Shown: piece by piece, positions 1 to 1,994 of the stretch
How positions within the stretch are numbered: position 1 is the first letter of the stretch
Layout: the number at the start of each line of letters is the position of its first letter
Assembly (NCBI GenBank): GCA_963786955.1
Contig: CAWBAT010000005.1
Span: forward strand, 1,088,001-1,152,000
Reading direction: 5' to 3'
Length of the DNA: 64,000 bases
Origin: an uncultured Acidimicrobiia bacterium
Lineage (GTDB): Bacteria; Acidobacteriota; Terriglobia; Versatilivoradales; Versatilivoraceae
Program-made: the position numbers and the translations under genes
The notes under the pieces: generated by a model
Database searches by the model: none
What the model was told of the DNA's origin: nothing
What the model saw: the letters and a program-made list of their open reading frames with translations, nothing else

Positions 1-1073
1 CCGGCATCGGCCAGCCGTTTGATTTCCTGGGTGATTTCACGGAGCTGGCTGTCACCAAAATGAAGCCCAAGCTCCTTCGCCCGGCTTTGGATCGCATTCT
101 TTCCCGTGAGGCGATGGGCTATGGAGATCGTCCGTTGCAATCCAAAATCTGCCGGATCAATGATTTCATAAGCTCCCGGATTGAGCATGACTGCTTTCGT
201 ATGCATCCCGGCTTTATGCGTAAAACTTGTCTCTCCGGTGATGTAATTGTTGAAGGGAATCTGGATCCCGACAATGTCGGCAATCATTTTATCCAGATCG
301 TAGAGCATCTCGAGTTTGTACTTCTTCACGAGATCCTTGTCATAGGAATAGAGACGGGCAACCAATCCTCCCAAGGGAGTGATCCCATTCCGTTCGCCTA
401 TCCCCAGGATGCTGGTGTCAATGTGTGTTGCACCGGCCTCCAGCGCGGTAAAACTGTTGGCAATAGCGCATCCGCTGTCATTATGTCCGTGAAACTCGAT
501 CCCGGCTTTAATGTGATGACGTAATTCCGAGACCAGCGCGAACAATTGCCGCGGTGTCGCGACTCCAACCGTATCAGCCAGTCCAACCCGGTCGACACCC
601 ATGGCATCAACGGCTTGATACACCCGCAACAGATCCGCCTCTTCACTCCGAAAGGTATCTTCACTCGAGAACCGGACTTCGCACCCAGACCGTTGGATGA
701 ACTCGATGACCTGGCCAGCACTTTCGATGATTTGATCAATATCCTTTCCATGACTGAATTCTCGCAGGTAGGAGGAAGTTCCAAAGAGAATGTCCACCCC
801 TGCCACGCCCGTCTCCACCGCTTTACGGGCATCATCCATGTGGCAGCGTGTGTGGGTCAAAATTTTGGTTTTGAGTCCCAGGTTAGCAATGGTTTTACAG
901 TCTTCAAAGGATTGTGGAGAAGCGACCGGAGAGGTCAATTCAATGTACTCGACGCCAAATTCGTCAAGGGCCTGAGCAATCTGGATTTTTTGGTCGGTCG
1001 TGAAATGGGCTCGAGCAAACTGTTCCCCTTCTCGCAAGGTTGAATCAATGATGTGGAACTCTCGAATAGACAT
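1..1073 (-). CDS. Homocitrate synthase (fungal Lys20/Thermus type), partial, runs off the left edge
   Basis: Not in ORF track. Manual translation from ATG 1073: [20 protein letters not shown]...[19 protein letters not shown]...[14 protein letters not shown]...[10 protein letters not shown]...LADTVG...EFHGHND...[22 protein letters not shown] at about 1084-1089. Confidence 0.9.
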
Positions 1074-1108
1074 GGGACTTCTTCTCCTCGCTTAATCCAT
1101 TTGCCAAC

Positions 1109-1145
1109 AAAAAAAAATCGGTGAGAGCCCTGACTCTCACCGATT
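1109..1145 (-). terminator. Intrinsic terminator forming the riboswitch expression platform
   Basis: Perfect 12-bp stem AATCGGTGAGAG/CTCTCACCGATT, 6-nt loop, U-tract on the minus strand (A run 1109-1117), about 35 nt upstream of the start codon. Confidence 0.88.
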
Positions 1146-1183
1146 CTGGAAATTAAGGTTAAGAATATAATTTCAAAAGCGGC

Positions 1184-1357
1184 AAGATAGCGCTCCACCC
1201 TGACTCTCTCAGAGTGACAGTTGAAGAGATCTTGTCTCAGCAACCAACCTCACTGATGCCCAAACCAGTGAGATTTCGGCGACAGCCCCTTTCCTTCAAG
1301 TTCATCGACTCAGGCGGTCTCACTTGAAGTACTCTTGGCGGTTCGCACCTCTATCTC
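1184..1357 (-). promoter_or_regulatory. Lysine riboswitch (L-box)
   Basis: Minus strand: P1 GAGATAG/CTATCTT; motifs in canonical order AGAGGTGCG..AAGAGTA..GATGA..GAAAGGGG..CGCCGAA..GTTGG..ACTGTCA..GGAGCGCTA; about 174 nt; TATACT -10 at 1370-1375. Confidence 0.9.
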
Positions 1358-1994
1358 AAAAACGCACTCAGTATAAATCATTCCGCAAAAAAAAACCAGC
1401 GCCGGCCTTCGCGGATATTGGGTCCGTTTCCAGTTTCGCTATATTACGCCAGTAGGTCAACATTAACGAACCCGACCTCCAATGTTGAAAAAATCGAAAG
1501 GAATGAGACGCCACCGCTTGCAGTCCCGCTTTTTTGATGACCCGCAATTGGGCTCAGCCAAATACCGTCTACGTTAAATCGGAATGAGACTTCGCTTTAA
1601 ATGAACCTGGAGGATATTTAAGCGCCACAGGTGACCACAAAGCAACAAACCTCTAAACTTCCTTTTTCTCCAGGGTTAAAGCGTTCGCTAAAGTATGCAG
1701 TGATACCCCTCTTCCATTCCAGCGAGTACATCCCCCTCAATCGCCAGTCCTCCTGCCGGATGAAACCCTGTCGTCCTTCATTTCTTTTGCGTAAGAAATG
1801 CTATCAGTATGGAAGAACTACGTTGCCAACTCGATTGATTCTCCATTAACCCTTTGTGGAAGATTGTGGTTAGGATTGGAAGGAGATTTGCTTCACTCAT
1901 AGAACGCTCTCCTGACAGAGTGGTGGAAGAATTCTATCAGGAGGAGCGATCTTTTCTCTATGGATGAAAACAGGTTCAAGCAAACGAGGATAAA

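Follow-up and report, generated by a model that had tools for sequence, protein, structure and literature searches.

We describe a lysine riboswitch (L-box) that lies directly before a gene for homocitrate synthase (HCS) in an uncultured acidobacterium, on a 64-kb stretch of contig CAWBAT010000005.1 (positions 1,088,001 to 1,152,000), which we call the window and whose own numbering is used below. We favor, at a probability of roughly 85%, the reading that this is a functional L-box of the ordinary class, which would switch a single gene, HCS, off by attenuating its transcription. The 5.65-Mb genome carries one L-box, the copy in the window, and there HCS appears to be the entry to what looks like the organism's only lysine route, the alpha-aminoadipate (AAA) pathway. 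The device is a known one, a conventional lysine riboswitch, and the target pathway is new as far as we have found; the gain lies in regulon biology and evolution, with no new mechanism.

The original prediction, made from the bare sequence, placed a full L-box aptamer at 1357-1184, a perfect terminator at 1145-1109 and an HCS gene in series, and all three were recovered on the minus strand with coordinates agreeing to within four bases. An Infernal search with the Rfam Lysine model (RF00168) matched 1361-1180(-) over the entire model (positions 1-182 of 182) with 112.5 bits and an E value of 3.3e-29, far over the gathering score of 30 bits; it is the sole Rfam match within the window, and its score is among the best of its family. 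Helices P1-P5 are all filled in the cmscan alignment, with 6 pair positions marked as non-standard on the NC line. When 18 HCS-linked aptamers from two phyla were given to RNAalifold, 36 pairs were predicted, 24 of them with compensatory double changes; the alignment behind this consensus was made by MAFFT, which is blind to structure, and P3, P4 and P5 were recovered from it and P1 and P2 were not. The core blocks AGAGG.GCG, GUCGCCGAA, CUGUC and GGAGCGCU show no or almost no variation across the aptamer alignment. This conservation also bears on the least probable of the alternatives that we weighed, namely, that the ligand of the aptamer has changed from lysine to an intermediate of the pathway (alpha-aminoadipate, for example). 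Nothing speaks directly for such a drift, although specificity is not readable from a model score, and the constancy of the core blocks speaks against it.

Thirty-two bases, an A/U-rich linker with a weak hairpin in minimum-free-energy (MFE) folds (1148..1179), separate the aptamer from an intrinsic terminator at 1109..1147(-). The terminator hairpin spans 1147-1114 and has 15 pairs (6 of them G-C) and a 4-nucleotide (nt) loop, followed by a T9 run that ends at 1109, much as had been predicted. Its fold energy is -20.4 kcal/mol, compared to a mean of -0.9 in 50 shuffles of the spacer. A consensus scan of 900-2100 found 2 terminator-like sites, which is not above the shuffle mean of 1.6, and the case for the terminator therefore rests on the strength of the hairpin and on its conservation. 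Of 24 acidobacterial leaders, which represent 21 distinct sequences, 22 have a hairpin that folds at -10 kcal/mol or lower and leads into a run of six or more U. Of the two exceptions, L014 has its terminator at another place in the leader, and in L128 the stem is unchanged and its U run counts just 5 at the position that was scored. Most family members share the stem sequence AUCGGUGAGAG/CUCUCACCGAU, with free variation in their loops and linkers, and the window's own linker is not conserved among relatives. The conservation of the stem hints that its 5' arm may also have to fit a second, conserved partner.

Downstream of the terminator, 10 nt 5' of the HCS start codon, is a probable ribosome-binding site, GAGGAG (1084..1089, minus strand), which is unpaired in the MFE fold of the window, with no predicted sequestration. 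In all five acidobacterial leaders examined, the MFE fold has P1 closed and the terminator hairpin formed together, which in these models is the architecture expected of the lysine-bound OFF state. A switch that relies chiefly on translation or on Rho-dependent termination, instead of on the intrinsic terminator, seems to us very unlikely. Several leaders of the Limnocylindria group, discussed below, have a hairpin without a clear U run, and the searches for an antiterminator described below agree on no one partner, both of which would fit such a platform. Against it stand the position of GAGGAG, 3' of the terminator and unpaired, and the retention of the hairpin with U8-9 in those 22 acidobacterial leaders.

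The HCS gene leaves the window at its left end, so that the window holds the first 357 of its 375 codons (3..1073, minus strand; ATG at 1073); the full gene (L001:17946-19073(-)) extends about 55 bases past the window and encodes 375 amino acids (aa). Its absence from the window's list of open reading frames (ORFs), which the original prediction had remarked on, arises because the frame 3..1073(-) exits the window. The protein scores 490.3 bits against TIGR02146, the model for HCS of the fungal, archaeal and Thermus type (cut-off, 413.55), and fails every other model listed, all LeuA models included, with 260.5 bits against a cut-off of 462.9 for NifV, 215.8 against 598.7 for leuA_bact and 175.9 against 450 for citramalate synthase (CimA). 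Within the 357 aa in the window, Pfam finds only PF00682 HMGL-like (270.8 bits) and PF22617 HCS_D2 (110.9 bits). There is no LeuA C-terminal regulatory domain, and the 375-aa protein ends level with the Thermus enzyme. The best solved relatives are the HCS of Thermus thermophilus (3a9i/2ztj; 518 bits, residues 3-375 against 1-376, end to end) and that of Schizosaccharomyces pombe (511 bits), and the STLREGEQ motif and the His of the 'THxxC' stretch align with the Thermus enzyme. From these comparisons, the predicted product is a lysine-pathway HCS of the Thermus/fungal type, as first proposed; it would condense acetyl-CoA with 2-oxoglutarate, and it groups with none of LeuA, CimA and NifV.

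That the enzyme instead serves 2-oxoacid elongation, or is a homocitrate synthase of the NifV type, strikes us as exceedingly unlikely. LeuA-family enzymes can be promiscuous, and the HCS gene stands apart from the other AAA genes: it is followed by a gene for a DUF2339 membrane protein and then by thyX, none of which is lysine related, and the expectation that further AAA genes would be found left of the window failed in that the lysW cluster lies on another contig. A role outside lysine synthesis is opposed by the model scores, with TIGR02146 passed and NifV, LeuA and CimA all below cut-off, and by the close match to the lysine enzymes of Thermus and S. pombe. It is also opposed by the homoaconitase-like genes that follow HCS in the Limnocylindria group, and the presence of a lysine sensor before the gene itself argues for a lysine role.

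Lysine-pathway genes elsewhere in the genome fit the predicted AAA/LysW route. A cluster on the other contig (L006) holds lysW (77.6 bits; cut-off, 53.2), lysX (358.7; 275.6) and lysZ (416; 223), with an argC-type reductase in the lysY position (TIGR01850 argC, 391.6 bits; cut-off, 233.6) and two unassigned ORFs; lysK is found away from the cluster (401 bits; cut-off, 363). Matches to the hacA (homoaconitase) family are below cut-off, the best being split by a change of frame into parts that score 294 and 212 bits. On the diaminopimelate (DAP) side, dapA, dapB and dapF are all present, and no lysA above cut-off was found in the genome, the best match reaching 101 bits against 297.9 within a 637-aa frame. 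Read plainly, this gene content suggests an organism in which diaminopimelate is produced, presumably for the cell wall, and lysine arises via aminoadipate. Since dapA, dapB and dapF are there and lysA was not found, HCS would be the committed step of the apparently sole lysine route. The closest relatives are metagenome-assembled genomes (MAGs) of Acidobacteriota/Terriglobia, in agreement with the host that had been suspected. Three genes appear to be split over two frames each, namely a paralogue of the LeuA family (G000:C8:224883-225915(-)), the best gene of the homoaconitase family (G000:C6:467035-468263(-)) and dapF (G000:C6:761135-761972(-)), a pattern that suggests indel errors in the assembly more than genuine pseudogenes.

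Conservation of the pairing was followed both among HCS genes and among L-boxes. We took the best 80 of 558 HCS relatives in a collection of species-representative genomes and scanned all 80 loci with Rfam at gathering thresholds. A same-strand L-box just 5' of HCS was found at 17 of the 80, comprising 4 loci in Acidobacteriota (L007, L010, L011 and L014) and 13 in Chloroflexota, mostly labelled Limnocylindria (L016-L019, L021-L028 and L030). The scan found no L-box at the 56 loci L031-L086, which come from Anaerolineae, Caldilineae, Deinococcales and Planctomycetota; seven loci with less than 340 bases upstream (L015, L020, L031, L036, L038, L079 and L084) are not judgeable in this respect. 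Two of the contigs with the pairing, L021 and L025, are filed as MAGs of a 'Bathyarchaeia archaeon' and a 'Saccharimonadales bacterium', and they may be mis-binned, because their HCS falls inside the Limnocylindria clade.

Closer to the window, 22 of 40 relatives of its genome have an L-box, as do 19 of 24 members of its own family, always in a single copy. At every one of the 19 L-box loci examined from these 40 relatives (18 belong to the window's family and 1 to a different family in the class), HCS, 75-98% identical, is directly downstream. An even sample of 150 other Acidobacteriota genomes contained 13 with an L-box, and here the next gene was aspartokinase in 3 cases, an M20 deacylase of the ArgE/DapE type in 10 and HCS in none. 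With 0 of the 13 L-boxes in this sample preceding HCS, the HCS wiring belongs to a single acidobacterial family with its close kin, not to the phylum as a whole. The idea that the riboswitch had been rewired onto the committed AAA step thus stands for the pairing; as a singular event it does not, the arrangement being family-wide and present in a second phylum.

The deacylase gene behind the ten M20-linked L-boxes (L088, L090, L091 and L093-L099) is of the ArgE/DapE/LysK type, would encode about 340 aa and lies some 30-125 bases downstream. We considered whether it might be LysK, a second tie to the AAA pathway if so; this is improbable, as no NCBIfam equivalog cut-off was reached and neither of the 2 genomes tested has lysW; one of the two has a lysA-like gene about 7 kb downstream. 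The product is probably a DAP-type deacylase.

In the Limnocylindria group the L-box appears to head an operon, to judge from gene order. Homoaconitase-like genes come next in 6 of the 9 loci whose downstream ORFs were scanned: in L017 an ORF for the aconitase large subunit overlaps the end of HCS and is followed by a small-subunit ORF, L026 has both ORFs, L023 has a large-subunit ORF, and L018, L022 and L024 have matches to the small-subunit domain (Aconitase_C). Genomes of this group with the pairing have LysW-like matches of 47.5-52.4 bits, just under the cut-off of 53.2.

How the switch would operate can be put in the terms of a standard attenuator. When lysine is plentiful, it would bind the five-helix aptamer and lock P1; with P1 locked, the 15-pair hairpin and U9 would form, and RNA polymerase would stop about 35 nt short of the start codon. 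Under lysine shortage, the 5' arm of the terminator would instead be paired with part of the aptamer, and transcription would enter HCS. In a duplex search with the terminator 5' arm, the aptamer core was the best partner in 9 of 21 leaders, that of the window included, where the duplex has -15.8 kcal/mol and none of 200 shuffles is as good. The best partner was elsewhere in the aptamer in 11 of the 21 leaders and in the P1 3' strand or the linker in 1, mostly with energies no better than those of shuffles. When the nascent transcript was folded, the partner of the 5' arm was the P1 3' strand in three leaders (L010, L011 and L007), the stretch immediately following P1 in L014 and, in the window, the aptamer core GCUGUCGCCGA.

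Several observations weigh against the attenuation reading or limit it. A single antiterminator partner had to be given up as a candidate, as the nascent folds and the duplex search are inconsistent across leaders, and lysine binding and termination, and with them the OFF direction, are predictions from the sequence. A consensus scan for a sigma-70-like promoter upstream of the aptamer found none. The genome is 93% complete, and lysA might lie in the missing part; several genes seem to be frameshifted, and the gene calls of the assembly need care. In the second phylum, lysA is above cut-off in 2 of 3 Limnocylindria genomes with the pairing and in the third is split at contig ends, and the pairing therefore needs no loss of the DAP route. 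Evidence of expression is weak. Small parts of the region are represented in two metatranscriptome runs from sediment: a 211-nt RNA-library contig with 1 difference covers 1136-1346, from the aptamer up to the terminator 5' arm, and a 247-nt contig with 5 differences covers 223-469 of the ORF. No contig in the two runs joins the leader to the ORF, 470-1135 being uncovered, and the contigs are uninformative on termination; they show presence only, not transcript ends or levels, and may reflect DNA carry-over.

Another counterpoint comes from close relatives in which the leader has been lost, wholly or in part, and L-box control is thus dispensable. In an acidobacterial group with near-identical HCS (tree branches of at most 0.02), we compared leaders over the 420 bases 5' of HCS (start at 3001; at 519 in L008). 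The full switch is present in L010 and L011. L009 and L012 retain only the 3' arm of P4, P5, the P1 3' strand and the terminator, that is, the terminator and the last quarter of the aptamer; these remnants give no match to the model at an E value of 0.01. In L013 unrelated sequence takes the place of the leader, and in L008 the ribosome-binding site of HCS abuts the stop codon of the upstream gene.

These losses, together with the 5 of 24 family genomes that have no L-box, are what would be expected if the aptamer of the window were itself a relic without regulation, HCS being constitutive or controlled only by feedback inhibition of the enzyme. We hold this to be highly improbable. The window aptamer is among the best of its family by score, all of its helices and its terminator are intact, and compensatory changes run across the set. 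Decay, moreover, is easily recognised, as truncated versions score nothing at an E value of 0.01, and it is absent in the window. A working attenuator thus remains the reading that we prefer for the window, in a lineage where some relatives seem to do without one.

Loss is one side of a broader turnover, as the position before HCS is elsewhere filled by what may be another lysine sensor. In L029, HCS is preceded by a full-length T-box leader (RF00230) at 2689-2940(+), with 88.2 bits and an E value of 7e-18, which is just below the gathering score of 93; L015 has a T-box before HCS at 1-215(+), with 65.7 bits, its 5' side cut by the contig end. Both show AAG then A at the specifier position, read by eye only, and the leader would be a lysine T-box on the AAA pathway. 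L029 and L015 are Chloroflexota MAGs of a sister lineage, and they belong to the same 30-member HCS clade (SH-aLRT, 100) as the L-box loci. That clade also contains four Deinococcales loci, upstream of which no Rfam match was found.

Dissecting the origin of the pairing is harder. The HCS tree has an unresolved three-way split between Acidobacteriota, Limnocylindria, and the T-box lineage with Deinococcales. Placing Acidobacteriota and Limnocylindria in one clade, a constraint chosen after viewing the tree, lowers the log-likelihood by 3.0 units, and the AU test does not reject it (p-AU, 0.309). In the aptamer tree, the acidobacterial aptamers, whether linked to HCS, lysC or M20, fall together and apart from those of Limnocylindria, with 33% support. 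Neither joint transfer of the module nor independent recruitment is favored by the HCS tree, the AU test or the aptamer tree. The wider picture that we would draw, tentatively and at slightly under even odds, is that the slot before bacterial HCS has been filled independently by different lysine sensors with fast turnover. The L-box would probably have been recruited separately in one acidobacterial family and in Limnocylindria, a lysine T-box in sister Chloroflexota and a leader peptide in Thermus, with truncation or deletion of the L-box in one acidobacterial genus.

Like the L-box leaders of Bacillus subtilis lysC and the Thermotoga maritima DAP operon, the leader in the window joins a five-helix aptamer and an intrinsic terminator to a gene of lysine biosynthesis; unlike them, its target is in the AAA pathway and is neither a DAP gene nor a transporter. 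The AAA lysine cluster of Thermus thermophilus is controlled by leader-peptide transcription attenuation, with the ribosome acting on Lys codons. In both systems, transcription would stop early in response to lysine, and the HCS enzymes that follow are close relatives (518 bits); they differ in that here the RNA itself is predicted to bind the amino acid, and none of the four Deinococcales HCS loci has an L-box. The T-box leaders of L029 and L015 are likewise RNA sensors with a terminator, in the same position and the same HCS clade, and they differ in the signal, a T-box sensing uncharged tRNA and an L-box the free amino acid.

Lysine-responsive control of the AAA/LysW pathway is also known from Sulfolobus, where, in the portion of the source available to us, LysM is described as an Lrp-type regulator of lysWXJK (PMC3597687). 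There it is a protein that acts on late genes in an archaeon, and here it would be an RNA on the first gene in bacteria. Within the phylum of the window, the available text of a 2017 survey of lysine riboswitch distribution places an L-box of the same class before asd-lysC in Candidatus Solibacter usitatus (PMC5584792), that is, at the entry to the aspartate/DAP route, in contrast to the window L-box at the entry to the AAA route in a genome with no detectable lysA. In that same text the targets are DAP genes and transporters only, with asd-lysC given for Acidobacteria; the names 'lysW' and 'lysX-lysY' refer there to transporters, and 'homocitrate' is absent as a word. As far as its accessible text goes, the work of Barrick and Breaker in 2007 mentions neither homocitrate nor aminoadipate (PMC2258182). 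Full-text literature searches, with subscription journals largely outside them, found no earlier description of a riboswitch before HCS.

The pairing widens the lysine riboswitch regulon from the DAP pathway and transporters to the AAA lysine pathway, and it lends further weight to the view that Acidobacteriota and Chloroflexota of soil and sediment actually use the AAA/LysW route. It also provides a rule for annotation, in that an L-box before a LeuA-family gene marks a lysine-pathway homocitrate synthase. The loci taken together form a compact natural system for the gain, swap and loss of a riboswitch, with intact leaders, two truncations, two clean deletions and the T-box. Within it, the truncated leaders of L009 and L012, which keep the 3' end of the aptamer and the terminator, would amount to a natural deletion series for mapping the antiterminator.

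As for the surroundings of the riboswitch, no convincing ORF was found in the gap at 1362-1994, nor any consensus promoter beside the aptamer; a TATACT at 1375-1370 was noted by visual inspection only. An ORF of 259 aa (1995-2774, plus strand) is divergent from the riboswitch, about 630 bases off. Farther along, at 3359-4822 on the plus strand, an ORF of 487 aa has an N-terminal hydrophobic stretch and five CxxCH motifs in its translation, and its product is probably a secreted multihaem c-type cytochrome.

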